Part shown: positions 7,279 through 35,570 of the stretch, piece after piece
Numbering within the stretch: position 1 is the first letter of the stretch
Layout of the letters: the number at the start of each line of letters is the position of its first letter
NCBI GenBank assembly: GCA_964460615.1
Contig: CAYWPX010000009.1
Location: forward strand, 19,509 to 83,508
Length of the DNA: 64,000 nucleotides
Reading direction: 5' to 3'
Origin: an uncultured Planctomycetia bacterium
GTDB taxonomy: Bacteria > Omnitrophota > Gorgyraeia > CAYWPX01
Position numbers and translations under genes: made by a program
Notes under the pieces: generated by a model
What the model saw: only the letters and a program-made list of their open reading frames with translations
Databases searched by the model: none
Told to the model about the DNA's origin: nothing

Positions 7279-7279
7279 T

Positions 7280-10738: not shown

Positions 10739-12022
10739 TTAAGGCGTTATCTTTTCCTTGCCGTCAAAATACTTCCGAAGCGCTTCCGGGATAGCAATAG
10801 ATCCGTCGATCTGTTGGTAATTTTCCATTATCGCTATCACCAGCCTCGCTAACGCCACTCCGGAAGCATTGAGCGTATGGACATATTCGGTTTTAGGTTT
10901 ACGGTTTTCGGTTTTGGATCTGAATCTAATATTAGCGCGCCTTGCCTGAAAATCTTCAAAGTTTGAACAACTCGAAACTTCCAAATTCATCTGGCTCCCT
11001 GGAGCCCATAACTCCAAGTCATAACATTTCGCAGCTGAAAACCCTATCCCTTGGGTGGAAAGGAGCACCACCCTATACGGAAGATTTAATAACTGTAAAA
11101 CTTTCTCAGCATTTTGTAATAGTTTCTCATGTTCATCATAAGACGTTTCGGGCTTTACAAATTTCACAAGCTCAATCTTATCAAACTGATGAACTCTCGT
11201 CATTCCTCTTGTCTCTTTACCGTAAGAACCGGCTTCTCTTCTGAAGCAGGCCGAATAGGCAGTATAGTAAATGGGTAGCTTTTCTTCATCGAGTATCTCA
11301 TCCCTAAAAATATTTGTTATGGGTACTTCGGCGGTAGGGATCAAAAATAAGTCGTCATATTTAAGGGTATACATATCTTCTTCAAATTTTGGCAGTTGGC
11401 CTGTACCTATCATACTGTTTCTATTTACCAAAAATGGAGGGAAAATTTCCGTATAACCATGCTCAGTTGTATGCAGATCAAGCATGAAGTTAATTAGCGC
11501 CCTTTCCAGCCTTGCTCCCATCCCTTTAAAAAGAATAAAGCTTGATGCAGTTATTTTGGTCGCTCTGGGAAAGTCAATAATATCCAATAACTCAGCTAGC
11601 TCCGTATGCGTCCTAGGCTTAAAGTCAAACTCCCTATGTTTTCCCCATTCCTTAACTACTTTGTTTGCTTCATGTTCTGAACCAATTGGCACAGATGAAT
11701 GCGGAATATTTGGGATAGTATATACAATATTAGCAATATTTTGGTCTAATTCCCCCACTCTTTTATCTAAAATCTCAATATTTTGGGATATCATTTTTAG
11801 ACCTTCTATCTTATCCTTAGCGTTGACCTTTTGAGCCATTAAACGGCCTATCTCTTCACTGGCCTTATTCTTTTGGCTCTTAAGGCTCTCGACCTCGGTT
11901 ACAATTTTACGCCTCTCTGAATCTAAGGATAAAAGCTCATCCAGATCCATTGTATAGTTTCTATTCTTAAGCGCCTCTTTTACTTTATCCGGATTTTCCC
12001 TAATAAATTTTATGTCTAACAT
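10739..12022 (-). CDS. serS: seryl-tRNA synthetase
   Basis: 427 aa. N-terminal coiled-coil arm, class II motifs 2 and 3 (FRRE..., GSGLA-like), full-length SerRS similarity. Confidence 0.95.
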   Translation of the reverse strand: MLDIKFIRENPDKVKEALKNRNYTMDLDELLSLDSERRKIVTEVESLKSQKNKASEEIGRLMAQKVNAKDKIEGLKMISQNIEILDKRVGELDQNIANIVYTIPNIPHSSVPIGSEHEANKVVKEWGKHREFDFKPRTHTELAELLDIIDFPRATKITASSFILFKGMGARLERALINFMLDLHTTEHGYTEIFPPFLVNRNSMIGTGQLPKFEEDMYTLKYDDLFLIPTAEVPITNIFRDEILDEEKLPIYYTAYSACFRREAGSYGKETRGMTRVHQFDKIELVKFVKPETSYDEHEKLLQNAEKVLQLLNLPYRVVLLSTQGIGFSAAKCYDLELWAPGSQMNLEVSSCSNFEDFQARRANIRFRSKTENRKPKTEYVHTLNASGVALARLVIAIMENYQQIDGSIAIPEALRKYFDGKEKITP

Positions 12023-12162
12023 TTACGATCCCCTTTTCAATCTGTACTGCGTCTTGAGTAGAGAGTACTGCGGTATATGCGCAATACACCGTACGCCGTA
12101 CGAAATACTATCCTTTAATCACACCTATTGCCTACCGCCTTTGGCGATACGGCCTGAAGCTA

Positions 12163-13626
12163 TCAACCCTTTATAACTCCTATTGGTCGCATCTTGCAGA
12201 CTCTTTTTGCGAGACCCGCCTCATGGACTACATTAACAACATCATTTACATCTTTATATGCTTCAGGCGCTTCTTCTAGTAATGTTTCTCTGCCTGTAGA
12301 TTTGACTATTATACCTTTATTTTCCAATTCGCGCGAGAGATTTCTTCCTTTTAGACTTCTGATCGCAGCACCCCTCGAAAGCATCCGTCCGGCACCATGA
12401 CAAGTAGAACCAAAGGTTTCATCTTCAGCCTTTTTTGTTCCGACTAATAAATACGAATTTCTACCCATATCTCCCGGTATTATAACCGGTTGGCCTATGG
12501 TTTTGTATTTAAGGGGAATATCAGGATGATTTGGCCCAAAGGACCTCGTCGCACCTTTTCTATGAACACATAATAATTTTTCTTTACCATTTATATTATA
12601 TTTTTCTAATTTAGCAATATTATGAGCAACATCATAAATAAGGTCCATACCAAGATCTCTGGAAGATTTTTTGAAAACTTTTTCAAATACATTTCGCGCT
12701 ATATGCATAAGGCACTGCCTATTGGCCCAGGCATAATTAGCTGCGCATCTCATAGCTCCCAGATATTTCTTTCCTTCCGGTGAATTCACCGGAACTGAGG
12801 CAAGCTGCCTATCGGGAACTTGAATATTGTACTTAGATAGTAAATGGATCATATCTTTAGCATATTCATCGCATATCTGATACCCCAACCCCCTTGAGCC
12901 TGAGTGGATCATTAGAACAACACTTCCGACTTCAATACCAAACACCTTGGCTGCAATTTTATCGAAAATTTCATCAACTACCTGCACTTCCATAAAATGG
13001 TTTCCCGAACCAAGAGTCCCTGACTGGTTCTTTCCTCTTTCGTAGGCTCTATCTGAAACTGCGGACGGATCCGCCCCTTCAATAAATCCGCCCGATTCGG
13101 TATATTCTATATCTTCTTTCCTTCCATAGCCTTTTTTCTCTATAACCCACCTTGAACCCTTTAAAAGAAGCTCCCTTTCTTCGAGCGCAGAGATCCTTAC
13201 ATCTCCTTTAGATCCAACGCCTGCAGGTACGTCGTTAAAAAGCGCATACACCAGATCCTTTAGAACCGGCCTGATATCATCTTCAAACAAATTTGTCCTA
13301 ACTAACCTTACCCCACAATTTATATCATAGCCCACTCCGCCGGGCGAAACTACTCCGCCGTTTTCTATATCTGTTGCAGCGACGCCTCCTATAGGAAAAC
13401 CATACCCCCAATGAATATCAGGCATAGCCAAAGAAGCGTTTACTATTCCGGGCAAAGTGGCTACATTTGCAACCTGCTCCATAGCCTTATCTTTAAAGAT
13501 ATCCTTGAGCATTCCTTCACTTGAATAGATAATACCCGGTACCCGCATGCCTTCTTTATAAGATTTTGGTATACGCCATCTGTAGTCGTCAATCTTTTCT
13601 ATGGGTATGTTTATTGTATCTGGCAT
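12163..13626 (-). CDS. rtcB: RNA-splicing ligase RtcB (3'-phosphate/5'-OH RNA ligase)
   Basis: 487 aa. GGVGYDINCGVR, HSGSRGLG, HNIA and CVHRKGATR motifs. Confidence 0.95.
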   Translation of the reverse strand: MPDTINIPIEKIDDYRWRIPKSYKEGMRVPGIIYSSEGMLKDIFKDKAMEQVANVATLPGIVNASLAMPDIHWGYGFPIGGVAATDIENGGVVSPGGVGYDINCGVRLVRTNLFEDDIRPVLKDLVYALFNDVPAGVGSKGDVRISALEERELLLKGSRWVIEKKGYGRKEDIEYTESGGFIEGADPSAVSDRAYERGKNQSGTLGSGNHFMEVQVVDEIFDKIAAKVFGIEVGSVVLMIHSGSRGLGYQICDEYAKDMIHLLSKYNIQVPDRQLASVPVNSPEGKKYLGAMRCAANYAWANRQCLMHIARNVFEKVFKKSSRDLGMDLIYDVAHNIAKLEKYNINGKEKLLCVHRKGATRSFGPNHPDIPLKYKTIGQPVIIPGDMGRNSYLLVGTKKAEDETFGSTCHGAGRMLSRGAAIRSLKGRNLSRELENKGIIVKSTGRETLLEEAPEAYKDVNDVVNVVHEAGLAKRVCKMRPIGVIKG

Positions 13627-13727
13627 TTTTAAATTCCTTTAGCTATAAGGCAATTAGATAATTGAGTGATTGGTTTAATTTTTTACCTAATCGCATTATA
13701 ACCTAATCACTATTTTTTATATACGAG

Positions 13728-14144
13728 CTACACATCAAAAATAATCTCTGCGCTATACATATCACCGGCCTTTGTTATCTTAAAATCGTGATATGTCACG
13801 CCCTTGACTTCGGCTTTAAGCACATGCCTTCTCTTATCAAAATCGTCACCAACAATTTCGGCAACGATCTCGCAATCAGCCAGTTTTTTTATTTTAATTT
13901 TTTTAATAAGAAATTCTCTGGAGGTATAAAAATAAAGGAGCTCGCTTAAAAAATTTATAAGCAGCTCCTCCAAGTTCGGGGCCTTGATAGAAACTTCTTT
14001 TTTCAAGGCCCCTTTAATTTTTTTTGTATCACTAAGAACATCAAATAAAGCTAAAGCCGAATTAGTAAAAAGCGTTTTAAGGGTTTTCCCATGCGCTCTT
14101 ACGCCTATGTCTGCAGTATGATCAAAATACTCAAAGCGCTTCAT
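13728..14144 (-). CDS. archease (RtcB activator)
   Basis: 138 aa. Signature FEYFDHTADIGVRAHG at the N-terminus; located immediately upstream of rtcB. Confidence 0.85.
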   Translation of the reverse strand: MKRFEYFDHTADIGVRAHGKTLKTLFTNSALALFDVLSDTKKIKGALKKEVSIKAPNLEELLINFLSELLYFYTSREFLIKKIKIKKLADCEIVAEIVGDDFDKRRHVLKAEVKGVTYHDFKITKAGDMYSAEIIFDV

Positions 14145-14155
14145 GAAAATTATTA

Positions 14156-15220
14156 CTAATCCTTTTTGACAATTGACTTAACCGCTTCCATTATCTCTAT
14201 GGGAACTGCAATTACGACTGTGTTTGAAGCTGTGGGCCCAAGGCCGTCAATCGTCTGCAACGTCCTAAGCTGCATAGCTCCCGGGGATTTTAGCATTGTC
14301 TCTGCCGCTGCAGCCAGATTTAAAGCTGCCAATTTATCACCTTCCGCTTTTGTAATTGTGGCGCGCTTTTCTCTTTCGGCGGAGGCCTGCCTTGACATCA
14401 TTTTCTTCAATTCTTCGGGCATATCTATATCCTGGATCTTTATTGTAGTTACCTCCAGGCCCCAGTTTTTGCTCTCTTTTTCCACAATACTCTCTATCTC
14501 TTTACCTATCTGCTCACGTTCGGTAAGAAGCTGATCCAACGACATCCCTCCGACAACGTCCCTTAAAGCAGCGAGAGCGTACTGGCTCATAGCATAAGAA
14601 TAATTTTGCACCTCTATAATAGCATCTTCTACTTTTATTACCTTGAAATATACAACTCCGTTAATAGAAACAGGTACATTATCTTTTGTAATAACCTGCT
14701 GTTTTGGTATATCAAGCGTGAGAACCCTTGTATCAACCATTGCCACATTGTCAACGACCGGAATAATGAAAAATAAACCAGGGCCTTTAATTCCTAAGAA
14801 TTTCCCCAATCTCAATACTATCCCTCTTTCCCACTGCGCAGCTATTCTTACAGCCGAAGAGGCCAAAATAGCCAGTAAAAAAGTTATAACAAAAAATAAA
14901 CCTCCTGTAAAATTATTCACCTGAAAAACCCCGAAGCTGAATATCCCTCCAAGTATCATTACAACAAAAAATATTAGTGTCGGTATACCGCTGAACATGA
15001 ACTCCTCCTTTTTTAATTGAACCTTATTTTTGATTTCATCCAATGAAACGGTTTTCAATAGATCCTGAAAACTACTGTTATCATTTAGGGAATTTTTTAA
15101 ATAATTTCTTATTGATTCATCACTTTCAGAAGCTTGTCGATTCTGGGATTTTGTTTTGGCGCTACTAACCGCTGAAATTATAAATATTACGACTATCAAT
15201 ACAAATATTAGGTCAAACAT
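14156..15220 (-). CDS. SPFH/band-7 (stomatin/HflC-like) membrane protein
   Basis: 354 aa. N-terminal TM segments, then an SPFH core (...YFKVIKVEDAIIEVQNYSYAMSQYALAALRDVVG...) and a coiled-coil tail. Confidence 0.8.
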   Translation of the reverse strand: MFDLIFVLIVVIFIISAVSSAKTKSQNRQASESDESIRNYLKNSLNDNSSFQDLLKTVSLDEIKNKVQLKKEEFMFSGIPTLIFFVVMILGGIFSFGVFQVNNFTGGLFFVITFLLAILASSAVRIAAQWERGIVLRLGKFLGIKGPGLFFIIPVVDNVAMVDTRVLTLDIPKQQVITKDNVPVSINGVVYFKVIKVEDAIIEVQNYSYAMSQYALAALRDVVGGMSLDQLLTEREQIGKEIESIVEKESKNWGLEVTTIKIQDIDMPEELKKMMSRQASAEREKRATITKAEGDKLAALNLAAAAETMLKSPGAMQLRTLQTIDGLGPTASNTVVIAVPIEIMEAVKSIVKKD

Positions 15221-15244
15221 ATTATAGCCAGATCCTTTTTAGGC

Positions 15245-16567
15245 TTATTTAGCCAATTTCGCTTCATCAAGCTCAGACATAAGGTACTTAACCTTTGCCA
15301 CTAAAATATAATAATCCTTGGTAAATTTAAGCAGATTGAACTGAGATCTCATATAGTTAAAATTTGAATCAATAATATCGCTCTGATCAACATCGCCTCT
15401 TTGATAAAGTGTAAATGACATATTAAGCGCCTCGTCTGCATCGCTAAACACAGAGCGCTGGCTTGATAATAATTTCTTTGTCTTCTCCAGATTTGCCGTG
15501 GCTTCTTCAAGGTCAAGTCGGATCTCATCCTTTATAAATCTTTCTACGGTCTCTAAGCGCGAATATTCGGACCTTAGCTGTGAAATTTGGGATGAATTAT
15601 CAAACCCGTCAAACAACGGAAGCTTAAAGTTGAGCACCAAAGACCAGTTATACTCATATGACCCGCCTAGATTAAATTTATTTGAGCTTTCGTAAAATGT
15701 GCTTTTCAAGCTTGCTTGGGGAGCATAACGCGAATACGCGGCATTAAGGGCCTGCTTACCGATCTTACTGGAGAGCTCCGCGACTTTTACGGTTAAATTG
15801 GTATTATAAACTTTATTGGACAGATCTTTTATATCATAATTGGTCATATTCTTCTCTTCGGGACAAACCAACTCCCCGATCACTGAAATTGTTTCGGGGC
15901 CGGGGATCATAAGTAATTTTTTTAATCTAGTTTCAAGGGTCTTTTTCTCCTTTTCAAAATTCAGAGAATCGGATTCAAGATTTTCGACCTCGATCTTTGA
16001 TCTCAGGATCTCGTATTTATGTACCTCCCCGGTCTTACTCATCCCCATAAGGTTGGAAGAGTAGCCTTCCATCCTGTTAATTGCCCTGGCGTTTAATTCC
16101 TCGAGTTTTTCATTCAAAAGAAGCTCATAATAAGTATTGATTATATCGTATATGATCTTGTTGCGCTTCTCATAATAAGCCTGCAGCTCTTTTTCAAGTG
16201 AGAGTCGGGCTTTTAAATAGTTGTAATAACTTTCTCCGCCTTTAAAAAGGTCCTGATTGATCTGGATATTCCCAACACTAGGCGCCTGCAAGAATGTCTC
16301 ATCCGCGACTCTCCCGGCCCCCGGAGAATCAGCCGAAATATAATTATAATTAGCATATATTTTCGGTAAAAATGCCGAAAAATTCTGTAATAGGTAGGCC
16401 CTGGCTTTTTTTACGTTTTCTTTGGCGATCTTAAGATCGGTATTTCTCGATAGCCCGGTTTCAATACATGCTTTCAGATTTAAGGGCTCTTTAAACTCCT
16501 CACCGGATACGGAATTAATTTTTAGAACGAATATAAAAACAACAAAAAATAAAAGGATTTTTTTCAT
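15245..16567 (-). CDS. TolC-like outer membrane efflux/channel protein (OEP family)
   Basis: 440 aa. Signal peptide, two tandem OEP-type repeats with coiled-coil and beta signatures. Confidence 0.6.
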   Translation of the reverse strand: MKKILLFFVVFIFVLKINSVSGEEFKEPLNLKACIETGLSRNTDLKIAKENVKKARAYLLQNFSAFLPKIYANYNYISADSPGAGRVADETFLQAPSVGNIQINQDLFKGGESYYNYLKARLSLEKELQAYYEKRNKIIYDIINTYYELLLNEKLEELNARAINRMEGYSSNLMGMSKTGEVHKYEILRSKIEVENLESDSLNFEKEKKTLETRLKKLLMIPGPETISVIGELVCPEEKNMTNYDIKDLSNKVYNTNLTVKVAELSSKIGKQALNAAYSRYAPQASLKSTFYESSNKFNLGGSYEYNWSLVLNFKLPLFDGFDNSSQISQLRSEYSRLETVERFIKDEIRLDLEEATANLEKTKKLLSSQRSVFSDADEALNMSFTLYQRGDVDQSDIIDSNFNYMRSQFNLLKFTKDYYILVAKVKYLMSELDEAKLAK

Positions 16568-16571
16568 ATTT

Positions 16572-17876
16572 TTATCTATACTCCGGCCTGTTGTCCCAAA
16601 CTTTTTTGGGCAAATAATTACTTCTCAAAAATGACATTCTAAAAAATTCAAGAAGATACGCAAACATACTGACCGCCCTCAAAAATAAGCTGTAGAAAAA
16701 AAAGATCGGGGAATATAATACAAACACCCAGTCCCTGCCCGGATCATCCGAAAGAAGAGCCACAATAGTAAATTGGATAAAATTCATAATAGTATAATAC
16801 AACAGCGTTACTATAACTATAAAAGGAAAAATCTGGGGAAAAAATATTGCTATCAAAATAAAATACAAAGGAAAAATGAATAAAAGCACAAGATTAAAAA
16901 AAAGATCCAAAACGCCTGCGATAAAATCACCTATTTTAAACGAATGAAAATCAAGAAGATTTCTGTGTTTTCTTAAATTTATACTCACATAACATCTGTC
17001 CCAACGTATCCTCTGCTTGGCCAGTCTAATCCACGTATCAGGGACTTCTGTCAACGCTATGGCCTTGGGCGCAAACGCAACTTTAAACCCGAGCTTTCTT
17101 GTCTTTATTGTTAAATCAAGGTCCTCGCCTGTCTCCGGGTCAGCCCCTTTCAGGTCAGTCATTACTTCGCGCCTATAGCTCGAAAAAGCACCTGAGGCGA
17201 TCTGAAGCAAATCCGTAAAAGCAAGCCATCTTCTCGAAATACTAATACACATGCCGTACTCAGCGGCCTGAAGGCGCGTAACAAGATTCTCTTTGTCATT
17301 ATACACCTTCAAATTGCCGCTTACTACACCAACCCTCTTATCTCTAAACGGCTTCACGGCTTCGGATATCGCATTACGATGTACCAGAGTATCGCCGTCA
17401 AAACCCATGATAATTTCTCCTTTAGAGAAATTTAAACCATAATTTATAGCTGAGGGCTTTCCCCCTCTTTCGGTTTTACGGAAAAATTTTATCAATCCCT
17501 TAGACTCAAAATTTCTGCAAATTTCGGGAGTATTATCTTCGGATTTATCATCAACAACAATTATTTCAAAGTTCGGGTAGTCATTCTCTAAAAAAGAATT
17601 TATGGTATTCTTTAGCCTTATACCTTCATTGTAAACGGGCAAAATAACACTCACAAAAGGCTTGTATTCTAACGAGCTCTCTTCATCCTTCTTTTCGCTT
17701 CCGAAAATCTCCAAAAAAAGAATTATTGAATTTCCGATATAATAACGCGTGGTATCAAATAATAGCGCCGGTCCAAAAAGAAAGACTATCTCGAATGGAG
17801 AGCGCGACATAACATTATCTATAGAAAATGCTATGTATTCACCGACCAAATTTATAAAATCAAAAATTATATGCAT
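16572..17876 (-). CDS. processive family-2 glycosyltransferase (PgaC/cellulose/hyaluronan-synthase-like), membrane-embedded
   Basis: 434 aa. VILPVYNEG, VVDDKSED, DGDT and the processive-synthase QRIRW motif. One N-terminal and ~4 C-terminal TM helices. Confidence 0.85.
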   Translation of the reverse strand: MHIIFDFINLVGEYIAFSIDNVMSRSPFEIVFLFGPALLFDTTRYYIGNSIILFLEIFGSEKKDEESSLEYKPFVSVILPVYNEGIRLKNTINSFLENDYPNFEIIVVDDKSEDNTPEICRNFESKGLIKFFRKTERGGKPSAINYGLNFSKGEIIMGFDGDTLVHRNAISEAVKPFRDKRVGVVSGNLKVYNDKENLVTRLQAAEYGMCISISRRWLAFTDLLQIASGAFSSYRREVMTDLKGADPETGEDLDLTIKTRKLGFKVAFAPKAIALTEVPDTWIRLAKQRIRWDRCYVSINLRKHRNLLDFHSFKIGDFIAGVLDLFFNLVLLFIFPLYFILIAIFFPQIFPFIVIVTLLYYTIMNFIQFTIVALLSDDPGRDWVFVLYSPIFFFYSLFLRAVSMFAYLLEFFRMSFLRSNYLPKKVWDNRPEYR

Positions 17877-18595
17877 TATTTAAATATTTTACAGTGGACC
17901 GACATGCCAAACTTAAAATATTTATTAAAATCATCTGATGCATCAAGCGGGAATATCCTGACTTTAAAAACTTTCTCCGGTAAATAATAGTACCTTGAAA
18001 ACATTTTGGGCATTTGATCTATCTCGGCATAAACAAACTCTATCTTACCCTTAATTTTTTTGTCTTTAATGCTCGACCAGACCTCGGCCTCCTGCCCCAC
18101 TCTCACGTTATTGATAAAGCGAGCAGGAACAAATGCATCTATCCAATACCGTTTGGGTTTTGTAACACTATAAATCACATCTCCTTTGTTAACTATATCC
18201 CCAACGGATTTATTTTTTTTGACTATCACCATTTCATAGCTTGCCCTTATGTCTTTGGATAATCCTCCGGCTTCGTCAGAAGCTTTGATGAGAGCAATCG
18301 TACTCCCCTCTTCAACCCTTGCGCCTGTTTCAGCATAAAGCTGGCTTATCTTTCCGTCTATAGGGGAAGTAATGCTAGATAGATCCATATTCTCCATTTC
18401 TAGCTGCATTGGACCCATTACTACACCATTAACAAATAAAGTATCCAATGTCAAAAACCTCCAAACAACAAATGGTGTAGCTAAAAATATTATAAAGAAT
18501 ACAAACTTGACTATTTTCGGCAGACCCTTCTTAGGGCTTTGACGTTCGGCTTGAGCCTTATTTACAGTAAACGCCTCTATCTTTCTTAGTCTCAT
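17876..18595 (-). CDS. HlyD-like periplasmic adaptor / membrane-fusion protein (short form)
   Basis: 239 aa. N-terminal TM anchor, biotin-lipoyl-like SPIDGKISQLYAETGARVEEG and a beta-barrel domain. 1-nt overlap with the GT2 gene. Confidence 0.55.
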   Translation of the reverse strand: MRLRKIEAFTVNKAQAERQSPKKGLPKIVKFVFFIIFLATPFVVWRFLTLDTLFVNGVVMGPMQLEMENMDLSSITSPIDGKISQLYAETGARVEEGSTIALIKASDEAGGLSKDIRASYEMVIVKKNKSVGDIVNKGDVIYSVTKPKRYWIDAFVPARFINNVRVGQEAEVWSSIKDKKIKGKIEFVYAEIDQMPKMFSRYYYLPEKVFKVRIFPLDASDDFNKYFKFGMSVHCKIFK

Positions 18596-20049
18596 ATAGT
18601 TTTCCCTGACATATTAATTAGTTTATTTAATAGCTCTTCATCAGTTCTGCCATCCTCAGGGTAAGAAACTGACGATACTTTAACGTTAATATGCTCCCTA
18701 CTGGTATACTCATTAAGCTTTTTATTTATAAAACGTTCCAGCTCCAGGGCCTTAGATTTATCGGCCTCCGGAAGAAGAGTAATTAAAGCGCTCTTGTCGT
18801 AACGGGCGTGTATGTTTATTTTCCAGAGATTCTCCTTTAGAAGGGTCGCTATGTCATTAAGCATCCTCCTGGCTCCACTAAAACCGGCCTTTTTGGTCAA
18901 TTCATCAAAATTGAGGACATTCACCATAACAATGGAAAAATGCTCTTTGAATTTTTCAGCACGGTCTAACTCCTCATCAAGTCTTTTCTTAAAATACCGG
19001 TTACTATATACCTCAACATCAGTATCAAGCAGTATCTGGTCCATGTTCAAATCTATAAATCTCCCCGACTCTACAACACCAGCCGCATCTTCGGTAATAG
19101 GATATTTAAATATATCCTGCCTCATAGCATTATCGATCTCAAATATTTTTTTGCAATTCCTGCATTGAGCGCTTACATCCGGTTCGGTGAACTTTTCTCC
19201 GTTATCATTACATACGAAACTTTGCCCCGGCTTATCATAATCCACCCCTATCTGCTTTAATTCATGCTCGCATTTTGGGCAGATGTACTGCGTCCCCTTT
19301 TTAAATTCTTCTTCAATGCCGGTATAGCCGCACCTGAAATGGTGGATCATTTCAACTATTGATATATTTGCGCTATGGGTAGTCGGACACGTCTCTCTGA
19401 TATTTATATCGTGATGCATGCAATATGGGCATAGAAGGACCCTGTCAAAAAATCTTTTTTCAAAACACCCTTTATTAACCAAAAATTCGATATGATCTAT
19501 TTCGCTTCCGTCATTGACTTTAAAAAAATTTGCGGCAATTGGATAGCCATAACCGCTCAGGGAATTCATATTATATTCCGGGATCAATTCCTTAATGTTA
19601 TTATCCAGCATACTTTTCAGGAAATCCACTCTCAACTTGTCTTCTTTGGATATGACCGGAGGTTGAGTGGTTTTTTTAGCCCTCCTCAAAACAACTTCTA
19701 TCCTGGCTATAAGCTCCTGGGCATCATAGGGTTTGGTTATGTAATCATCTATACCGAATTTAAAAAATTTTACCTTATCTTCCATACCGGATCTCGCGGT
19801 AAGGGCAATGGCAGGAATAGCTGATTTTTTGGCATCGGCATGCAACTTCTGAAGGACTTCAAATCCATCCATCCCGGGCATCATAATATCAAGGAGTATC
19901 AAATCCGGAGTATTGGTATCCGTATAGAGCAGAGCTTCTTTGCCGCTTAAAACACTATGAACATTGAACCCCGCGTTTTCCAATCTCATAGTTAAAAGCC
20001 GGCTAACATCCGGTTCATCATCTACAATAAGAATATTCCCTTTTGCCAT
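18592..20049 (-). CDS. response regulator: REC + Cys-rich (zinc-ribbon-like) middle domain + degenerate GGDEF domain
   Basis: 485 aa. REC motifs (VDDE, LILLDIMMPGMDG, ALTA, KPY). CPYC..C..C..CPKC..C..CRNC cluster. C-terminal GGDEF fold with RYDKSAL replacing RYGGDEF and no RxxD I-site. Confidence 0.75.
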   Translation of the reverse strand: MAKGNILIVDDEPDVSRLLTMRLENAGFNVHSVLSGKEALLYTDTNTPDLILLDIMMPGMDGFEVLQKLHADAKKSAIPAIALTARSGMEDKVKFFKFGIDDYITKPYDAQELIARIEVVLRRAKKTTQPPVISKEDKLRVDFLKSMLDNNIKELIPEYNMNSLSGYGYPIAANFFKVNDGSEIDHIEFLVNKGCFEKRFFDRVLLCPYCMHHDINIRETCPTTHSANISIVEMIHHFRCGYTGIEEEFKKGTQYICPKCEHELKQIGVDYDKPGQSFVCNDNGEKFTEPDVSAQCRNCKKIFEIDNAMRQDIFKYPITEDAAGVVESGRFIDLNMDQILLDTDVEVYSNRYFKKRLDEELDRAEKFKEHFSIVMVNVLNFDELTKKAGFSGARRMLNDIATLLKENLWKINIHARYDKSALITLLPEADKSKALELERFINKKLNEYTSREHINVKVSSVSYPEDGRTDEELLNKLINMSGKTI

Positions 20050-20070
20050 ATTTTTATCCTCTGGTAAATG

Positions 20071-21456
20071 CTATTGTTTTATATTTAATTCTTCCGGATG
20101 GTTTGTATAATATTTTTTCATTTTAATCAAAATATCATCCATTGAAGTGGAAGGTATAAAATTTAAAATTCTTTCAAGCTTCCTCAGATCAGGAATGCGC
20201 TTTCTTATATCCTCAAAATTGGTCCCATAATATTTTTCGTAATCTTCAAATTTTATTTGCGAAGAACTTCCGGTAATATTTATTATACGCTGGGCAAGGT
20301 CACTTATGGTTATATTATTATTACTTCCGAGATTTATCAGCTGACCGTTTGCATCTTTGGAATTAGCAAGTCTTATGATTATCTCTACGGCGTCTTCAAC
20401 ATATGTAAAACACCTGGACTGTTTCCCGTCCCCGTAAATAACAAGCGGTTTATTATTAAAGGCGTTATAAAAGAATCTCGGTATAACCATTCCAAAATTC
20501 CCGACCTGACCCGGGCCTACTATATTAAAAAGCCTTACCACAACAACCGGGAGATTCCTTTCCTTATGATACGCTATCGTGAGAAATTCATCAAGTAATT
20601 TTGAACAAGCATAGCTCCACCTGTTAACATCAGGGGGCCCGATAACGACATCATTATCCTCTCTAAAAGGAAGCTGGTCGGATTTGCCGTAGACTTCGGA
20701 GGTTGAGGTGAGAAAAACCTTGATATGTTTTTGTGAAGCATATTTCAGGACTAACTCAGTCCCGTAAGTATCATTTATTATGGTATCAAGAGGCCTGTCG
20801 ACAACATTTTTAACTCCTACCGTAGCCGCTAAGTGATATATCATATCGACTTTATCTATCAGTTTACTTATAAGCGCTTCATCAGTAACAGATCCTCTCG
20901 TTAAATTAAAATTTTTTAAACCTGCCATATCCTCAATATTTTTTTCTCTGCCCGTAGAAAAATCATCTAATACATAGACGTTATATTTCATTTTTACAAG
21001 CACCCTTGCCAAATGCGAGCCTATAAAACCGGCCCCACCGGTAACAAGAATATTATTAATGGTATTTTTGGCGGCATCCTTTGACCTTCGTAAGACTGCA
21101 TTAACTCTGCTTATGAATTCCTCTGCCTCAAATGGCTTTGTTATATAATCATCCGCTCCCAGATCAAGGCATTTAACCATGTTTGACGACGATTGATCCG
21201 CCGTAAGCATTATAACCGGGATAAAAGCGGTTTTTCTATCAGAGCGGATCTTTGCCAATAGAGTATACCCGTCCATATCAGGCATCTCGATATCCATAAT
21301 GATAATATCGGGGATCTCTTTTTTTAAATATTCCAGGGCATCAATCCCGCTTGCGACTGCGGAAGCAATAAAGCCGGATTTATTTAAGCGCGGCAGAAGC
21401 ACCTTGCCGACTTCCCTTTCATCATCGATTATTAATACTTTTGGTACTGGCGACAT
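20071..21456 (-). CDS. REC domain fused to NAD-dependent sugar-nucleotide epimerase/dehydratase (extended SDR, UDP-glucuronate decarboxylase/UXS-like)
   Basis: 461 aa. N-terminal REC (IDDE, IIIMDIEMPDMDG, MLTA, KPF), then VTGGAGFIGSH Rossmann, catalytic SxS...YACSK (YxxxK). Confidence 0.85.
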   Translation of the reverse strand: MSPVPKVLIIDDEREVGKVLLPRLNKSGFIASAVASGIDALEYLKKEIPDIIIMDIEMPDMDGYTLLAKIRSDRKTAFIPVIMLTADQSSSNMVKCLDLGADDYITKPFEAEEFISRVNAVLRRSKDAAKNTINNILVTGGAGFIGSHLARVLVKMKYNVYVLDDFSTGREKNIEDMAGLKNFNLTRGSVTDEALISKLIDKVDMIYHLAATVGVKNVVDRPLDTIINDTYGTELVLKYASQKHIKVFLTSTSEVYGKSDQLPFREDNDVVIGPPDVNRWSYACSKLLDEFLTIAYHKERNLPVVVVRLFNIVGPGQVGNFGMVIPRFFYNAFNNKPLVIYGDGKQSRCFTYVEDAVEIIIRLANSKDANGQLINLGSNNNITISDLAQRIINITGSSSQIKFEDYEKYYGTNFEDIRKRIPDLRKLERILNFIPSTSMDDILIKMKKYYTNHPEELNIKQ

Positions 21457-21461
21457 ACGTC

Positions 21462-22802
21462 CTATCTCCTATTCTTTCTATCCAGGATGATCCTTCTGAT
21501 TTCAGCCCTGATCTTATCCGGATCGTGACGGACTACTTCTGTTTCATTTGCTATATCGGCTATAACAATACGAGCTTTAGTAATTTTTTTGATTTCGTTG
21601 ATATCATTAATAAAGACGGGGAATTGATTTTTTTTGGAATATTTTTTTACTGAACTCTTGGATAATTTATTTGTATCGTTTATTAATATATAATCCAAGC
21701 TATCCGATTTAAGATATTTTATAATTTCGCTGATATGATTAGCCGCATCAAACCCGTAAGTTTCACCCGGTTTTGTCATAAGATTGCATATATACACCTT
21801 AACTGCGGGCGAATCTATTATAGCATCTCTTATGGCTTTAACTAATAAATTTGTTATAATACTGGTAAACAGATCTCCCGGGCCGATTGTAACCATATCA
21901 GAATTAATGATCGACGAACAAGCGCCTGTATCGGCTTTCGAAGGAGGCTCGTGCCAGCAATCGATGATCTTCAGGGATTTGTCCCGCCCAACCCCAAGAT
22001 CAATATTGCTTTCGCCTTTAATAACTTTACCATTTTCAAATTTTGCACATAAGGTAGGATTTGTTATTGTGGCAGGATTTACTATCCCTTTAATATTAAG
22101 TATGTCGCCCATGGCCCTGACCGCTTCAGGCATCGAGCCGGTAATATCGGATAAGGCAGTGATAAGCAAATTACCTAAGCTATGACCGCTAAGGCCCGGG
22201 GCCTTTTTAAATCTGTACTGCATTACTTTATCCATTAGATCCGGAGTGGTGGATAGAGCGACCAGATTCCTTCTTATGTCTCCCGCCGGGATCCCGCCAA
22301 AAGCCGCCTTAAGCCTTCCCGACGAACCGCCATCATCACTGGTGCTTACTATGGAGGTCAAAAATACATCATCGAGTTCCTTTAACCCCATTAAGAGATT
22401 AAATAATCCCGTCCCTCCCCCAATAGATGAGACCCTGTACTTTTTTTCAAATACTGCTTTGACTTTTAATAGGATCTCCCTGTGGTTAAAAGGCTTGGAC
22501 AAAAAGTCCTTGGAGCCGTATTTTTGAAAATCAAAGACATCCTCCAGGCTTTCGGAGAGAGAAGAAATAAAAAAAGGGATTTTAGAAACTTCAACAATAT
22601 TAAGGTTTTTTTGGAATAATACAGGATTGCTTTTGTAGGAATCTTTATCAAATACTATAATGTCCGGCGAGAAATCGATCAATGCAGATTTCAAAGTTTC
22701 GAAATCAAATACTCTTTTAACCTCTAAAACAAGTTTTGATAGAAAAGGCTTGATATCTTCTACAAACTTATCGTTTCCAATCAATAAAAATCTTTTATTC
22801 AT
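21462..22802 (-). CDS. REC-like receiver domain fused to YvcK/CofD-like (UPF0052) domain
   Basis: 446 aa. N-terminal ~125 aa with receiver pattern (LIGND, IIVFDKD, FFISS, SKPF), then IGGGTGLFNLL, DDGGSSGRL and PAGDIRRNLVALS motifs of the YvcK family. Confidence 0.75.
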   Translation of the reverse strand: MNKRFLLIGNDKFVEDIKPFLSKLVLEVKRVFDFETLKSALIDFSPDIIVFDKDSYKSNPVLFQKNLNIVEVSKIPFFISSLSESLEDVFDFQKYGSKDFLSKPFNHREILLKVKAVFEKKYRVSSIGGGTGLFNLLMGLKELDDVFLTSIVSTSDDGGSSGRLKAAFGGIPAGDIRRNLVALSTTPDLMDKVMQYRFKKAPGLSGHSLGNLLITALSDITGSMPEAVRAMGDILNIKGIVNPATITNPTLCAKFENGKVIKGESNIDLGVGRDKSLKIIDCWHEPPSKADTGACSSIINSDMVTIGPGDLFTSIITNLLVKAIRDAIIDSPAVKVYICNLMTKPGETYGFDAANHISEIIKYLKSDSLDYILINDTNKLSKSSVKKYSKKNQFPVFINDINEIKKITKARIVIADIANETEVVRHDPDKIRAEIRRIILDRKNRR

Positions 22803-22871
22803 TAAGATTTTTCCTATGAAAATTGTTGTGTAGATGATTGGAGCAAATTTTGCAACTTTTAATCAGATTGA

Positions 22872-22900
22872 AATATTTGCTTTAAGTATTTATCTGTCAA
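22872..22900 (-). promoter_or_regulatory. candidate promoter (TTGACA-17-AATATT) upstream of the REC-fusion operon
   Basis: rc of 22895-22900 = TTGACA; -10-like AATATT at 22872-22877; ~70 nt upstream of the ATG at 22802. Weak -10. Confidence 0.3.
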
Positions 22901-23079
22901 ACAATTATATCATAGGGCATTGATATTTCAATATAAATATAAATGGCCAATAATGACACAAGCTGTAGCTATTTCAATGCATTCAAATGACCCATTTCGG
23001 TCTAAAAACAAAAAAATATGGCAAAGATGCATAGAAGCAAACAAATACTTTTCTTCCAAAATCTTTGCCATTAAAGCTC

Positions 23080-23190
23080 TTATTTTTTACAGACACATTC
23101 ACTCGCTTTCTTTTTGCATCCGCTGCAAACCCCTTTTTCGATTGGCTTGCCACAATTCTTACACGGTGTACACCCGCAAACTTCGCACAT
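23080..23190 (-). CDS. small Cys-rich peptide (36 aa, 11 Cys), metallothionein-like or precursor-peptide-like
   Basis: MCEVCGCTPCKNCGKPIEKGVCSGCKKKASECVCKK. GGGGGTGA Shine-Dalgarno 6 nt upstream. TATAAT-like -10 ~70 nt upstream. Not in the ORF track (<60 aa). Confidence 0.4.
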   Translation of the reverse strand: MCEVCGCTPCKNCGKPIEKGVCSGCKKKASECVCKK

Positions 23191-23411
23191 GTTAATCACC
23201 CCCGCTCTAAGATCTTTCTATATGGAATTGCCAAAAAAATGTTAAAAATTAATATTAATTATACAGCATATTAAAAAAAAGAAAATTGGCAGATTCTATT
23301 ACTATTTGACTTTTTTCTACCTATAGATAATTTAGAATGTTTTGCATATGCTCTTAATAGGGGTAAGCACATATTCTTAAGATATTGTAAAATTCCATAA
23401 TTTTAGAATCC

Positions 23412-23965
23412 AAAATTAAGAAATTTTAGCAACAATCGCATGGACAAAAAATAAACCTCTTATTTTTTTAAGAGGTTTTAATTGAATTTTGCCCCTCGTT
23501 TTGCCTAAATTGCTTCTTCTCGACGCAATTTACGGCAACTCGGGATTGGTGAGCCGCCCGTGACTCTCCCGACGCAATCCTTTGGATAGGTCGGGATTCC
23601 GACTTACCTGTTTTATGGGTAACGTCGGAAGAACACGGCGTATCTACCAATGAATAAAATTGAAAGACTGAGAGGGTATATGTCCATGCGCTTAAAATAG
23701 TACTAAAATTCCTTAATTTTCAAGAACACAAAATTAAGAAATTTTAGTATTAATCGCATGGACAAAAAATAAACCTCTTATTTTTTTAAGAGGTTTTAAT
23801 TGAATTTTGCCCCTCGTTTTGCCTAAATTGCTTCTTCTCGACGCAATTTACGGCAACTCGGGATTGGTGAGCCGCCCGTGACTCTCCCGACGCAATCCTT
23901 TGGATAGGTCGGGATTCCGACTTACCTGTTTTATGGGTAACGTCGGAAGAACACGGTGTATTTGG
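23412..23965. repeat. Two ~232-bp direct repeats (23412-23643 and 23731-23960, period ~319 bp). Each contains a bidirectional terminator hairpin and the 3'-terminal 20 nt of tRNA-Lys(TTT).
   Basis: Near-identical blocks. tggtgagccgcccgtgactc at 23548-23566 and 23865-23884 equals the tRNA 3' end at 24143-24162. ORFs 23468-23650 and 23786-24001 lie inside the repeats and are likely spurious. Confidence 0.85.
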
Positions 23966-24103
23966 TATTAACGGTATCGGGATTGGGGGGCTATTACGCA
24001 CATGCTCTTAAAGAGAAATGCCGATATTCTTAAGATATTGTAAAAATTCCTTAATTTTAATTACAAAATTAAGGAATTTTTACAATAAGAATATGGACCA
24101 AAA

Positions 24104-24142
24104 TAAAAAATCATTCTTAATTTTAAGAATGATTTTTTATTT
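24104..24142. terminator. bidirectional rho-independent terminator abutting the tRNA-Lys(TTT) 3' end
   Basis: aaaaaatcattcttaa-tttt-aagaatgatttttt: perfect 11-bp stem flanked by A- and T-tracts. Confidence 0.7.
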
Positions 24143-24218
24143 TGGTGAGCCGCCCGTGACTCGAACACGGCACAACCACATTAAAAGTGTGGTGCTCTAC
24201 CTGATGAGCTAGCGGCCC
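24143..24218 (-). tRNA. tRNA-Lys (anticodon TTT), encoded CCA
   Basis: rc reads GGGCCGCTAGCTCATCAGGTAGAGCACCACACTTTTAATGTGGTTGTGCCGTGTTCGAGTCACGGGCGGCTCACCA. Anticodon loop CTTTTAA. Confidence 0.85.
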
Positions 24219-24566
24219 ACGTTAAACTTAAATCTAAATTTCAATACTAGGCAATCTGACTGATGTCGCTTTGTTGATGTCCCAAAAAACTTAAGTTTTT
24301 TGGGATGAATTAGCTCTTGATCCTTAAAAACTCGTTTTTCTGCCTGCTGCCTTAGGGCAGTCAGGCAGTAATCATGATCTAATTCTACGGCCCACGTTAA
24401 ACTTAAATCTAAATTTCAATACTAGGCAATCTGACTGATGTCGCTTTGTTGATGTCCCAAAAAACTTAAGTTTTTTGGGATGAATTAGCTCTTGATCCTT
24501 AAAAACTCGTTTTTCTGCCTGCTGCCTTAGGGCAGTCAGGCAGTAATCATGATCTAATTCTACGGC
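24216..24566. repeat. Tandem 175-bp repeat x2 (+ partial third) between frr and tRNA-Lys(TTT). Each unit carries a perfect 24-bp palindrome cccaaaaaacttaagttttttggg and an imperfect GC hairpin ctgcctgctgcc-ttag-ggcagtcaggcag.
   Basis: Units 24216-24390 and 24391-24565 are near-identical; the unit boundary includes the first nt of the tRNA 5' end (cggccc). Confidence 0.85.
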
Positions 24567-24588
24567 CCCCTTTAATTCAAAATCTAAA

Positions 24589-25149
24589 CTATATCGCTGT
24601 TAGTTCTTTTTCTTTTGCAGCTAAAACCTGATCAACTTCTTTTATAGTCTTATCTGTAAGCTTCTGGATATCGTCCTGACCCTTGAAGCTGTCATCTTCT
24701 GTGATGAGGTGGTCTTTTTCACCTTTTTTAATATGTTCATTTGCATCGCGTCTGATCGCCCTAAGAGAAACCCTGGCGTCTTCTGCCAGTTTCTTAACAA
24801 CCTTTGTAAGTTCTTCGCGCCTTTCCTGTGTAAGCTGTGGTATTGAGATCCTTACAACTTTGCCATCATTGATTGGATTAGCTCCGAGATCTGATTTCTG
24901 GATAGCTTTTTCAATCTCTCCTAAAGCATTCAAGTCCCAAGGCTGAATGACAATAAGTTTCGGATCGGGAGCAGAAATATTGCCAAGCTGCTTTATCGGA
25001 GTCATAGTCCCGTAATAATCGACCTTTATGCTTTCAACTAAAGATGCCGACGCCCGGCCGGTACGAACAGTAGATAGATCCCTGTGTAATACTTCCATGG
25101 TCTTTTTCATCTTCATTTCTGTATCGTGGATAATATCTTTTACCGACAT
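24589..25149 (-). CDS. frr: ribosome recycling factor
   Basis: 186 aa, full-length RRF similarity. Confidence 0.95.
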   Translation of the reverse strand: MSVKDIIHDTEMKMKKTMEVLHRDLSTVRTGRASASLVESIKVDYYGTMTPIKQLGNISAPDPKLIVIQPWDLNALGEIEKAIQKSDLGANPINDGKVVRISIPQLTQERREELTKVVKKLAEDARVSLRAIRRDANEHIKKGEKDHLITEDDSFKGQDDIQKLTDKTIKEVDQVLAAKEKELTAI

Positions 25150-29528: not shown

Positions 29529-30464
29529 TTGGTGGAAAACAAATTAAGAGTCGGTGTGGTAGGCCTCGGCCACTTGGGCGCCCATCATGCAAGGGTATAT
29601 TCCTTACTTCCTAATGCGAGCCTCGTAGGCTGCTCGGATATAAATCAGGAATTAGCCGAAAATATAGCTAAAAAATTCCATTCAAAGGCATTTACTAACT
29701 ACAAAGATCTATTTGGGAAGGTTGATGCGGTAAGCATCGTTACTCCCACTGCTTTACACTATCAGATAGCTAAAGACTTCCTTGAGGCAGGCATCAATGT
29801 CTTGATCGAAAAACCTATTACCAAATCTCTTGAAGAAGCTGACAAGCTCCTGGAGATCCAAAAAAATAAGAACCTTATTCTCCAGGTCGGGCATATCGAA
29901 AGGTTCAACCCCGCCATTAGCGCAATAGCTGACGTGATAAATGAGCCCATATTTATCGAATGCCACAGGCTTAGCACATATCTAAAAAGAGCTATTGAAG
30001 TGGGCGTAGTACTGGACCTTATGATACATGATATCGATATAATACTCGAACTGATCAACTCCGACGTGGAATCGATAGAAGCAATCGGCGGGAATATACT
30101 CTCTAAGACAGAGGATGTTGCCAATGTAAGGATCAAATTCAAAAATGGCGCCGTGGCCAATATTACTGCCAGCCGCATGGCCTATCAGGCAAAAAGAAAA
30201 ATACGGATCTTTCAAAAAGATGCCTATATCGTACTGGATTATATCAACCAAGGCGCTTATCTGTTCAAAAAAGAAGGCGATAAGATCACAAGGCACAAAC
30301 TAGACGCTGAAAAAATCGAACCTCTCAAAAAAGAACTAGAATCTTTCGTTGACTGTGTAATAAACAAAAAAAGGCCTATTGTTTCCGGCGAAGAAGCCAG
30401 AAAGGCCCTTGCCGTAGCGATCGACATCACAAAAAAGATCCAATCCCTAAAATATGGCAACTAA
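29529..30464 (+). CDS. Gfo/Idh/MocA-family NAD(P)-dependent oxidoreductase
   Basis: 311 aa. N-terminal Rossmann VGVVGLGHLGAHHA, EKP motif; overlaps the lpxB start by 11 nt. Confidence 0.8.
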   Translation: MVENKLRVGVVGLGHLGAHHARVYSLLPNASLVGCSDINQELAENIAKKFHSKAFTNYKDLFGKVDAVSIVTPTALHYQIAKDFLEAGINVLIEKPITKSLEEADKLLEIQKNKNLILQVGHIERFNPAISAIADVINEPIFIECHRLSTYLKRAIEVGVVLDLMIHDIDIILELINSDVESIEAIGGNILSKTEDVANVRIKFKNGAVANITASRMAYQAKRKIRIFQKDAYIVLDYINQGAYLFKKEGDKITRHKLDAEKIEPLKKELESFVDCVINKKRPIVSGEEARKALAVAIDITKKIQSLKYGN

Positions 30465-31593: not shown

Positions 31594-31755
31594 TGCGATC
31601 ATAATTTCAAATTAATCGCATAATGACAAATAATATAATTATTTAATTGCCTTAAGACAGGCTTTTTTATTCCTAGATTCCCGCCTAATGCTTGCGGGAA
31701 TGACAGCTTTTTTTAAAATTTGGAGTTAACCGAGAGATAAAAGCTTTTGGGATTT

Positions 31756-32562: not shown

Positions 32563-32576
32563 TTTTTATGATTTTA

Positions 32577-35484: not shown

Positions 35485-35570
35485 TGTACTCTCCTTGTAA
35501 TTTTTTATCTTTATTCTATGTACTGTGTACTAAGAACTGTGTACCTGCCTCGCCGGCAGGCGGGCTGCTT

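Follow-up and report, generated by a model that had tools for sequence, protein, structure and literature searches.

A six-gene Omnitrophota locus with receiver-domain fusions and a TackOD1 protein paired with a candidate exopolysaccharide synthase

We analyzed a stretch of 64,000 nucleotides (hereafter, the window; forward-strand positions 19,509 to 83,508 of contig CAYWPX010000009.1, assembly GCA_964460615.1) from an uncultured Planctomycetia bacterium that is placed among the Omnitrophota (Gorgyraeia; CAYWPX01) in the GTDB lineage. Our study concerns six tightly packed minus-strand open reading frames (ORFs) at 15245-22802, named g1 to g6 and listed in Table 1, which we read as a candidate exopolysaccharide (EPS) synthesis and export operon. 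Three of the encoded proteins begin with a receiver (REC) domain, fused to a YvcK/GlmR-type domain in g1, to a short-chain dehydrogenase/reductase (SDR) in g2 and to TackOD1 and degenerate GGDEF domains in g3; the others comprise a membrane fusion protein (MFP; g4), a family 2 glycosyltransferase (GT2; g5) and an outer-membrane factor (OMF; g6). A preliminary description, made from the letters of the sequence, had reported six co-directional, nearly overlapping genes. Its coordinates proved exact, with junctions from g1/g2 to g5/g6 of +5, +21, −4, −1 and +4 nt calculated from the ORF coordinates, and all six of its domain assignments were borne out by annotation with Pfam and NCBIfam hidden Markov models (HMMs), supplemented for the receiver fold of g1 by profile-profile comparison using hhalign.

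Table 1 Coordinates of the six-gene operon and of further features in the window.
Feature	Position	Strand	Description
g1	21462-22802	minus	Atypical receiver (aa 1-120) and YvcK/GlmR-type CofD-family domain (aa 121-446)
g2	20071-21456	minus	Canonical receiver (aa 7-118) and extended SDR of UXS/ArnA type (aa 135-455)
g3	18592-20049	minus	Canonical receiver (aa 1-125), TackOD1 (aa 136-317) and degenerate GGDEF (aa 345-474)
g4	17876-18595	minus	Short membrane-anchored HlyD-like adaptor
g5	16572-17876	minus	Membrane-embedded processive GT2 synthase
g6	15245-16567	minus	TolC-like outer-membrane factor
Sigma-70-like promoter match	22904..22931	minus	TTGAAA-16 nt-TATAAT with extended −10 TG, ~100 nt upstream of the g1 start
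HisKA-HATPase kinase	7280-8725	minus	Has its own downstream REC gene; candidate phosphodonor only, unlinked to the operon
REC gene	6910-7446		Adjoins the kinase gene downstream
Lipid A/outer-membrane biogenesis cluster	29529-37997		LpxB, LpxI, LpxC-FabZ fusion, LpxD, Skp and BamA
LpxC-FabZ fusion	32577-33899		Within the lipid A cluster
tRNA-Lys(ttt)	24143-24218	minus	In the 1.8-kb gap upstream of g1 (22803-24600)
Tandem duplication	24213-24562		Perfect, 175 nt, beginning at the 5′ end of tRNA-Lys
Repeat pair	23405-23643, 23723-23961		Two 239-nt repeats, 97% identical
36-aa ORF	23080-23190	minus	11 Cys

The promoter match ahead of g1 agrees with the consensus at 11 of 12 positions and is the top-scoring site in 12000-24600, as a match to the consensus only. 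No terminator-like site was found after g6, and neither a terminator-like nor a promoter-like site stands out between g2 and g3. Because genes for an SPFH protein, archease and RtcB come closely after g6, the 3′ boundary of the operon is uncertain.

The strongest signals beyond the preliminary description came from g3 and its relatives. This protein scores 105 bits against Response_reg (cut-off 30.2), 160.6 bits against TackOD1 (PF18551; cut-off 32) and 55.8 bits against GGDEF (PF00990), and about 30 clusters with the full-length REC-TackOD1-GGDEF architecture were found, most of them, like those of the other two fusions, from Omnitrophota. The Cys-rich domain noted earlier is real, its label ‘zinc-ribbon-like’ being superseded by the named Pfam domain. 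Among 25 relatives of g3, the receiver residues D10, D11, D54, T84 and K106 are invariant, as are C207, C210, H237, C240, C257, C260, C296 and C299 of TackOD1. Two of the 11 conserved TackOD1 cysteines were lost in the g3 subfamily (T224 and N283); Cys is near-universal at these positions, and its loss probably means two zinc sites instead of three. Where GG(D/E)EF is expected, g3 has ARYDKSAL (415-422), and the motif is intact in none of 25 close, 65 locus-set and 136 wider relatives. The GGDEF domain thus reads as catalytically dead, as the preliminary description had supposed, and a role of g3 as an active diguanylate cyclase was rejected. No transmembrane (TM) segment was detected in g3, for which reason the protein is predicted to be cytoplasmic.

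Across genomes, TackOD1 is tied to one type of synthase. The set examined comprised 87 loci (loci of the comparison carry L numbers), that is, 80 metagenome loci from an alignment scan with TackOD1 only plus L006-L009 and L090-L092 from protein look-up; L010-L089, unrelated response regulators that matched a generic receiver motif, stand outside all TackOD1 counts. In 60 of 77 assessable loci, the gene directly downstream of TackOD1 encodes a g5-like GT2, at a distance of −29 to +148 nt (mode −4); in four the GT2 gene directly precedes TackOD1, bringing the loci in which TackOD1 adjoins a g5-type GT2 to 64. Six others have the GT2 one gene away with the MFP gene alone between, in three the contig ends right behind the MFP gene, one (L127) is anomalous in that the two ORFs overlap by 832 nt, and three show no GT2 in the available flanking sequence. 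After TackOD1 sequences were collapsed at 90% identity, 68 clusters remained, comprising 60 linked, eight not assessable and none unlinked. The hosts appear diverse, since locus GC spans 29-72%. Compared with g5, TackOD1-linked GT2s score 156-600 bits versus 48-102 bits for the GT2s of loci without TackOD1, and this separation of ranges places g5 in a distinct synthase clade. The TackOD1-GT2 pairing is therefore near-obligate, and the domain is widespread: a profile search of 1.84 billion representatives yielded 2,266 TackOD1 clusters, with E ≤ 1e-10 for 1,888.

Two members of this set deserve separate mention. In L127 (7446-10312), on a high-GC contig, the overlapping ORFs for TackOD1 (516 aa) and GT2 (717 aa) occupy different frames, which could represent a frameshifted regulator-synthase fusion or an ORF-calling artefact. 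Although L090 (GCA_042576685.1, JBHPEX010000028.1) bears the label ‘Thermoproteota archaeon’, genes for LpxB and a sigma-70 factor are present on it, as is the bacterial REC-SDR/TackOD1/GT2 set; the contig is probably bacterial and was mis-binned into an archaeal metagenome-assembled genome.

The second signal is the loss of the I-site in receiver-bearing TackOD1 proteins. The I-site motif RxxD, scored at a distance of exactly five residues ahead of the degenerate A-site, was found by a census of motifs and HMM matches in 103 of 136 diverse TackOD1 representatives that have this region. Within the locus set, 34 of 43 proteins lacking a REC domain carry RxxD versus 4 of 22 REC-type proteins, which mostly show WxxD/N instead (14/22); g3 itself has W409-K-I-N412 (LWKIN, 408-412) and no RxxD. 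Because the A-site is dead and RxxD is kept, as in PssE, most of the wider TackOD1-GGDEF family probably senses cyclic di-GMP (c-di-GMP). As an I-site receptor for this nucleotide, g3 was rejected together with the receiver-bearing subfamily (WxxN), the same role being likely for the wider family. With the I-site arginine lost and a canonical receiver present, the on-switch of g3 would be Asp phosphorylation. We infer that c-di-GMP was the ancestral input of the family and that the window subfamily swapped it for phosphorylation.

In the proteins without REC (L108-L172), the N-terminal ~140 aa have no Pfam match. Compared with receivers, this region gave a weak hhalign match (47%, E 2e-4) and shows ‘D-x-I-I-I’ on the strand of the phospho-acceptor, possibly representing a degenerate receiver comparable to the REC*-GGDEF* module of BcsE (asterisks mark degenerate domains).

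We also considered the predicted structure of g3 and a different role for this protein. AlphaFold2 modeled the TackOD1 domain with a predicted local distance difference test (pLDDT) score of 92.5 and full-length g3 as three domains on flexible linkers (predicted template modeling score (pTM) 0.40). Winged-helix matches prompted the idea that g3 is a DNA-binding response regulator, which would contact the promoter through the zinc ribbons and a winged-helix-like edge of TackOD1 and, once phosphorylated, turn on operon transcription. The putative recognition helix, however, carries a net negative charge of −1 to −3 in 25 of 25 relatives, within a domain that is acidic overall, which led us to down-weight DNA binding. 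Foldseek returned no solved homologue, and separate AraC-type regulators were found in seven loci by neighbour clustering. Moreover, TackOD1 and GT2 genes most commonly overlap by 4 nt, as is typical of complex subunits, and RxxD on a dead GGDEF domain in the wider family suggests nucleotide sensing like that of the post-translational regulators PelD and PssE. We consider promoter binding by g3 unlikely and favor a post-translational role at the synthase.

That synthase, g5, matches Glycos_transf_2 with 119 bits and has the D, DxD, (E)D and QxxRW motifs of processive membrane GT2 enzymes (PVYNE80, VDDKS108, DGD160, GEDLD250 and QRIRW288) together with a C-terminal TM bundle, recognized as hydrophobic segments at 314-409. 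Its nearest curated family is PgaC/IcaA (TIGR03937), at 166 bits compared with a cut-off of 422; it also matches NodC with 99 bits and BcsA with only 35 bits, and a solved HAS aligns with residues 156-406. No PgaA, PgaB or PgaD homologues were annotated in the six-gene block. By these scores, g5 is PgaC/NodC/HAS-like rather than a cellulose synthase and is not PgaC itself.

The adaptor g4 (239 aa; HlyD_3, 66.7 bits) overlaps the g3 stop by 4 nt at its start and has a single TM segment (aa 24-51) together with lipoyl and beta-barrel domains. Alignment with the 340-370-aa adaptors of other TackOD1 loci located a deletion between the lipoyl halves, where a ~10-residue linker replaces the ~110 residues of the alpha-hairpin. 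The channel protein g6 has a signal peptide (aa 1-23) and two OEP repeats (142 bits), and scores 73.9 bits, under the cut-off, against TIGR01844. An HlyD-type adaptor and an OEP channel are also encoded beside the synthase in L008, L091, L094, L097, L099 and L100, where the g6-type gene keeps its position. Neighbour clustering across TackOD1 loci recovered a ~350-aa HlyD_3 adaptor in 33 loci, in most cases from the directly upstream position, and the short adaptor in ten, as well as a ~680-aa OEP-domain protein in 28 and a 438-aa OMF in seven; UDP-glucose dehydrogenase (Ugd) genes occurred in eight. These counts strengthen the earlier reading of a GT2-MFP-OMF arrangement, although its likeness to cellulose synthase systems did not extend to the synthase. 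From gene content and neighbourhood, we predict that g4, g5 and g6 form a physical complex that exports a polymer.

Alternatively, NodC-like chemistry might yield a short oligosaccharide for secretion, or a glycan located in the periplasm or attached to the outer membrane, and g4 and g6 would serve as an efflux-type exporter. The NodC match of g5 and its score under the PgaC cut-off agree with this proposal, TolC-type systems usually export small molecules, and a g4 without the hairpin does not resemble the known conduits for polymers. However, processive synthases that translocate their own product, such as HAS and BcsA, typically show the features present in g5, QRIRW and a C-terminal TM bundle, in keeping with the HAS alignment. 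No separate inner-membrane pump of the ABC, RND or MFS type is encoded in the block, and the BgsA/BgsB/TolC system demonstrates that a polymer can leave the cell through TolC (PMC13438883). We regard an oligosaccharide product as quite improbable and a polymer as the better reading.

Upstream of these core genes, g1 belongs to the YvcK/GlmR family (CofD, 270 bits; TIGR01826, 304.6 bits compared with a cut-off of 196; 202 bits against Bacillus halodurans YvcK, 2o2z). More than 100 full-length REC-YvcK clusters with 45-56% identity were found, and all named ones are from Omnitrophota. The g1 motif ‘STSDDGGSSG’ aligns with ‘VADDGGSSG’ of the B. halodurans protein, and we take its Asp-Asp to be the counterpart of D38 D39 in Bacillus subtilis GlmR. 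These two residues are catalytic in the B. subtilis enzyme (PMC13046274). Conservation of the DD and RH motifs predicts that g1 is a GlmR/YvcK-type, UDP-GlcNAc-binding uridyltransferase/GlmS activator.

The N-terminal domain of g1 scored 19.4 bits in Pfam, under the PF00072 cut-off of 30.2. Its receiver fold was recognized when a 119-member family alignment was compared with REC by hhalign (probability 99.1%, E 5e-19, 116 columns), and receivers in the Protein Data Bank (PDB) match residues 3-120 with E ~2e-5. In CheY-like receivers, an acidic pair that binds Mg is required for phosphotransfer. The window protein has G-N instead: in the family, Gly occupies the first position in 113 of 119 members, whereas the second is mostly Ser, Asn or Gly and is Asp in 14 members only. 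The family keeps the phospho-acceptor Asp in 109, Ser/Thr in all and Lys in 94 of 119 members, and g1 itself has Asp52, Ser and Lys-Pro. The g1 receiver therefore looks atypical and possibly acts independently of phosphorylation. The three points of phosphorylation control proposed in the preliminary description are thus overstated: g1 may not be phosphorylated, and only the receivers of g2 and g3 look canonical.

Receiver and enzyme are both readily recognized in g2 (Response_reg, 102 bits, cut-off 30.2; Epimerase, 175 bits), the receiver having DD, D, T and K all present. The best solved relative of its SDR domain is human UXS1 (4lk3; 174 bits), with which it shares GGAGFIGSH, STSEVYG, YxxxK (as YACSK) and the arginine of QSR in alignment. 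Every equivalog cut-off lies above its score (NF008872, 144 compared with 294; LegB, 153 compared with 475; RmlB, 143 compared with 365). About 85 REC-SDR clusters are full-length, and the closest SDRs without REC also come from Omnitrophota. The SDR receiver is a separate gene in L091 and L094 and absent in L001, indicating that it was fused, split and lost repeatedly. An assembly or frameshift origin of the fusions was rejected, as each has tens to >100 full-length homologues from independent assemblies; an identical copy is present in a Logan assembly. These numbers also mean that the architectures are common within Omnitrophota and not rare.

Comparison of loci resolved the block into two modules. 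Module A consists of REC-YvcK and an SDR with or without REC, together with a kinase and a REC gene, and module B consists of REC-TackOD1-GGDEF*, short MFP, GT2 and OMF. They are joined, as in the window, in L091 and L094, in the nine-gene order kinase, REC, REC-YvcK, REC, SDR, g3-like gene, MFP, GT2 and OMF, and each module is also found separately. Module B stands alone in L008, L097, L099 and L100, preceded by a dCache-HAMP kinase and a REC gene. In L001 and L004, module A has a different downstream set. That set (L001, 12333-16255; L004, 12727-16642) encodes a REC protein, a 276-aa protein without a Pfam match, a 429-aa HEAT-repeat protein and a 469-aa GT2 distant from g5 (~50 bits), and may constitute a second uncharacterised synthase system. 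REC-SDR accompanies TackOD1-GT2 without YvcK in L090, L092, L105 and L106. Between REC-SDR and REC-TackOD1-GGDEF, these four loci, which lack the MFP/OMF pair, encode a conserved ~285-aa protein without a Pfam match (L090, 9100-9963; L092, 9126-9980). REC-YvcK and SDR form a conserved gene pair, since 30 match pairs trace to a longest contig of the same size.

These arrangements bear on whether g1 and g2 belong functionally to the core. They might instead act as a general envelope precursor checkpoint, regulating UDP-GlcNAc for both peptidoglycan and lipid A in the manner of GlmR, merely upstream of an independent TackOD1-GT2 export operon. GlmR/YvcK does serve peptidoglycan precursor supply in Firmicutes (PMC13046274, PMC7525490), each module occurs without the other (L001 and L004; L008, L097, L099 and L100), and the g2-g3 gap of 21 nt is the widest of the block. 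On the other side, REC-YvcK directly adjoins a GT2 synthase cluster of some type in six of six inspected loci, the order of nine genes is the same in L091 and L094, REC-SDR travels with TackOD1-GT2 even where YvcK is missing, and no promoter- or terminator-like site separates g2 visibly from g3. A detached checkpoint appears improbable to us, and we prefer a supply function of g1 and g2 for the adjoining synthase. L002 (1-14100; JGI 3300032138, a 461-kb contig) has REC-YvcK flanked by a Bcs-like cellulose cluster (GH8, GGDEF, GT2, BcsB, TPR and UDP-GlcNAc 2-epimerase) and by a DHH phosphoesterase and CdaA, a cyclic di-AMP (c-di-AMP) cyclase. The proximity to CdaA echoes the link between GlmR and c-di-AMP reported in Bacillus (PMC13046274).

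Domain annotation revealed no histidine kinase within the six-gene block, in agreement with the preliminary description, but this absence is a feature of the window only: a dCache-HAMP kinase gene heads the operon directly upstream of REC-YvcK in L001, L004, L091 and L094, and kinases are adjacent in L006-L009 and L097-L101. At the kinase position of these relatives, the window has tRNA-Lys and repeats with copies of the tRNA 3′ end, and the kinase of its operon may have been displaced. The kinase at 7280-8725, earlier described as an orphan, is not one, because a REC gene, likewise on the minus strand, adjoins it downstream. As an orphan partner of the operon it was rejected, given this REC gene and the housekeeping genes in between; it lies 6.5 kb away, separated by SerRS, tRNA-Ser, RtcB, archease and SPFH genes. 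Its N-terminal ~250 residues have no Pfam match, pointing to an unrecognised sensor domain. The adjoining REC ORF overlaps the 3′ end of the kinase gene as listed, and its true start is probably later.

Taken together, we think it on balance probable, by a modest measure, that the locus encodes a synthase-dependent EPS system built from two conserved modules that are both wired to a two-component phosphorelay. In such a system, a sensor kinase, of dCache-HAMP type in relatives, would phosphorylate g3 and probably g2. Phosphorylated g3 in the cytoplasm would act as a post-translational co-activator of the inner-membrane GT2 g5, presumably through physical interaction, and g5 would polymerise a UDP-sugar and thread the chain through the inner membrane. 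Membrane-anchored g4 and TolC-like g6 would then form a tripartite conduit with the synthase and take the chain across periplasm and outer membrane. Meanwhile, g1 and g2, the latter as a UXS-like UDP-sugar 4-oxidase/decarboxylase-type SDR, would adjust UDP-sugar pools, so that the same signal, or one in parallel, gates precursor supply via the N-terminal receivers, that of g1 probably working without phosphorylation. The PgaC/NodC/HAS likeness of g5 and its GlmR partner suggest that the polymer probably contains HexNAc, perhaps with uronic acid or pentose in view of the UXS-like SDR and of Ugd in related loci. Whereas gene content, domain identities, motif states and neighbourhood conservation are direct observations, each of these functional statements is deduced from sequence and context.

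Several findings weigh against this scheme. The two modules occur independently (L001 and L004 versus L008 and L097-L100), and the coupling of supply and core in the window may be loose for that reason. No kinase is located within or beside the operon, the region upstream of which is a tRNA and repeat scar. Further points are the absence of the metal-binding pair from the g1 receiver, the absence from g4 of the alpha-hairpin by which conventional adaptors contact TolC, the AlphaFold2 model of full-length g3, which gives no confident inter-domain packing, and the specificities of the g2 SDR and g5 GT2, which fall under every equivalog cut-off.

A broader generalization, which we offer tentatively and hold to be possible with the chances somewhat against it, is that TackOD1-GGDEF* proteins constitute an unrecognised, widespread class of co-activators (~2,000 clusters at 50% identity) for a GT2 clade exporting via its own HlyD-like and OEP-like partners. 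Most members would read c-di-GMP, and those of Omnitrophota would read His-Asp phosphorylation instead, with the relay extended to the UDP-sugar supply enzymes (GlmR homologue and SDR) by receiver fusion. One kinase would then gate both substrate supply and polymerisation with no second messenger.

Homologues that bear a taxon name point to Candidatus Omnitrophota for the host. The window encodes LpxB, LpxI, LpxC-FabZ, LpxD, Skp, BamA and SurA, and these lipid A and outer-membrane biogenesis genes identify the host as a diderm with lipopolysaccharide, which in turn makes an outer-membrane channel such as g6 plausible. The LpxC-FabZ fusion is remarkable by itself. In the gap upstream of g1, each of the two 239-nt repeats carries the tRNA 3′ end once more, with a terminator-like hairpin behind it, and together with the tandem duplication the region looks like integration or duplication scars at a tRNA gene. 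Rfam detected only tRNA-Lys in this region and no riboswitch or other known RNA. The gap also contains the 36-aa Cys-rich ORF (MCEVCGCTPCKNCGKPIEKGVCSGCKKKASECVCKK), with a purine-rich, Shine-Dalgarno-like stretch ahead; it could encode a metallothionein-like or ribosomally synthesized and post-translationally modified peptide (RiPP)-like product, or be spurious.

The near-obligate pairing provides a first functional context for TackOD1, a domain called ‘obscure’ in 2018, and makes TackOD1-GT2 systems a candidate new family of synthase-dependent EPS machines. The Omnitrophota version would amount to a natural signal-rewiring experiment, in which the same co-activator scaffold that mostly appears to read c-di-GMP reads phosphorylation, and receivers on sugar-nucleotide enzymes (SDR and GlmR) would be a rare case in which a two-component system controls metabolic flux at the level of proteins. 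For the Omnitrophota, which are uncultured and in many cases ultra-small and associated with hosts, a regulated surface polymer would be relevant to attachment.

Among known systems, the tripartite mixed-linkage beta-glucan machinery BgsA/BgsB/TolC of Sinorhizobium meliloti (PMC13438883) and the cyanobacterial Xcs system resemble the locus in combining a processive GT2 with an HlyD-like MFP and a TolC-type OMF in the absence of a BcsC/PgaA-type porin (PMC13438883, PMC8892547, PMC12430437). Unlike in these systems, the window synthase is of PgaC/NodC/HAS type and itself lacks a domain for c-di-GMP binding, the operon includes the OMF gene, the adaptor is hairpin-less and a separate TackOD1-GGDEF* regulator is present. 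A further parallel is the Sinorhizobium cluster uxs1-uxe-apsS-apsE-apsH for an arabinose-containing EPS, controlled transcriptionally by c-di-GMP-CuxR and MucR (PMC12560781). There, too, a UXS-type SDR heads an EPS operon under signalling input, but only the window SDR itself bears a receiver domain.

Degenerate GGDEF-type activators of EPS synthases include YdaK of B. subtilis and the GIL domain of BcsE (REC*-GGDEF*). With PssE and PelD, g3 shares a catalytically dead GGDEF domain encoded within an EPS synthase operon. PssE, from the Listeria pssA-E operon, is an I-site c-di-GMP receptor with a Kd of 0.79 uM and is required for EPS made by a GT2 (PMC4125290). In contrast to both proteins, the GGDEF-like domain of the present family is always preceded by TackOD1, g3 is soluble with no TM segment, and its subfamily has WxxD/N in place of RxxD and a fused canonical receiver.

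The g1 protein falls, above the TIGR01826 cut-off, in the same family as Firmicutes GlmR/YvcK and keeps the DD motif. We tentatively align its C-terminal Arg-His with the UDP-GlcNAc-binding R301 of B. subtilis GlmR, and a Pro in g1 with T304; both correspondences are assumptions on our part. B. subtilis GlmR is regulated by phosphorylation and by UDP-GlcNAc, with PrkC phosphorylating T304, making this phosphorylation-regulated protein a functional analogue of REC-YvcK (PMC13046274). Bacillus GlmR differs in that g1 has a fused atypical receiver and an EPS operon context instead of yvcJ-glmR-whiA.

In the literature that we searched, no description of REC-YvcK, REC-SDR or TackOD1 function was found, the sole mention of TackOD1 (PMC5847659) being a report of archaeal REC-TackOD1 response regulators in type IV pilus loci that called the function of the domain ‘obscure’ (Galperin et al. 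2018). Like these archaeal proteins, g3 has an N-terminal receiver and the same Pfam domain (160 bits); unlike them, the bacterial proteins end in a GGDEF-like domain and are linked to a GT2 synthase.

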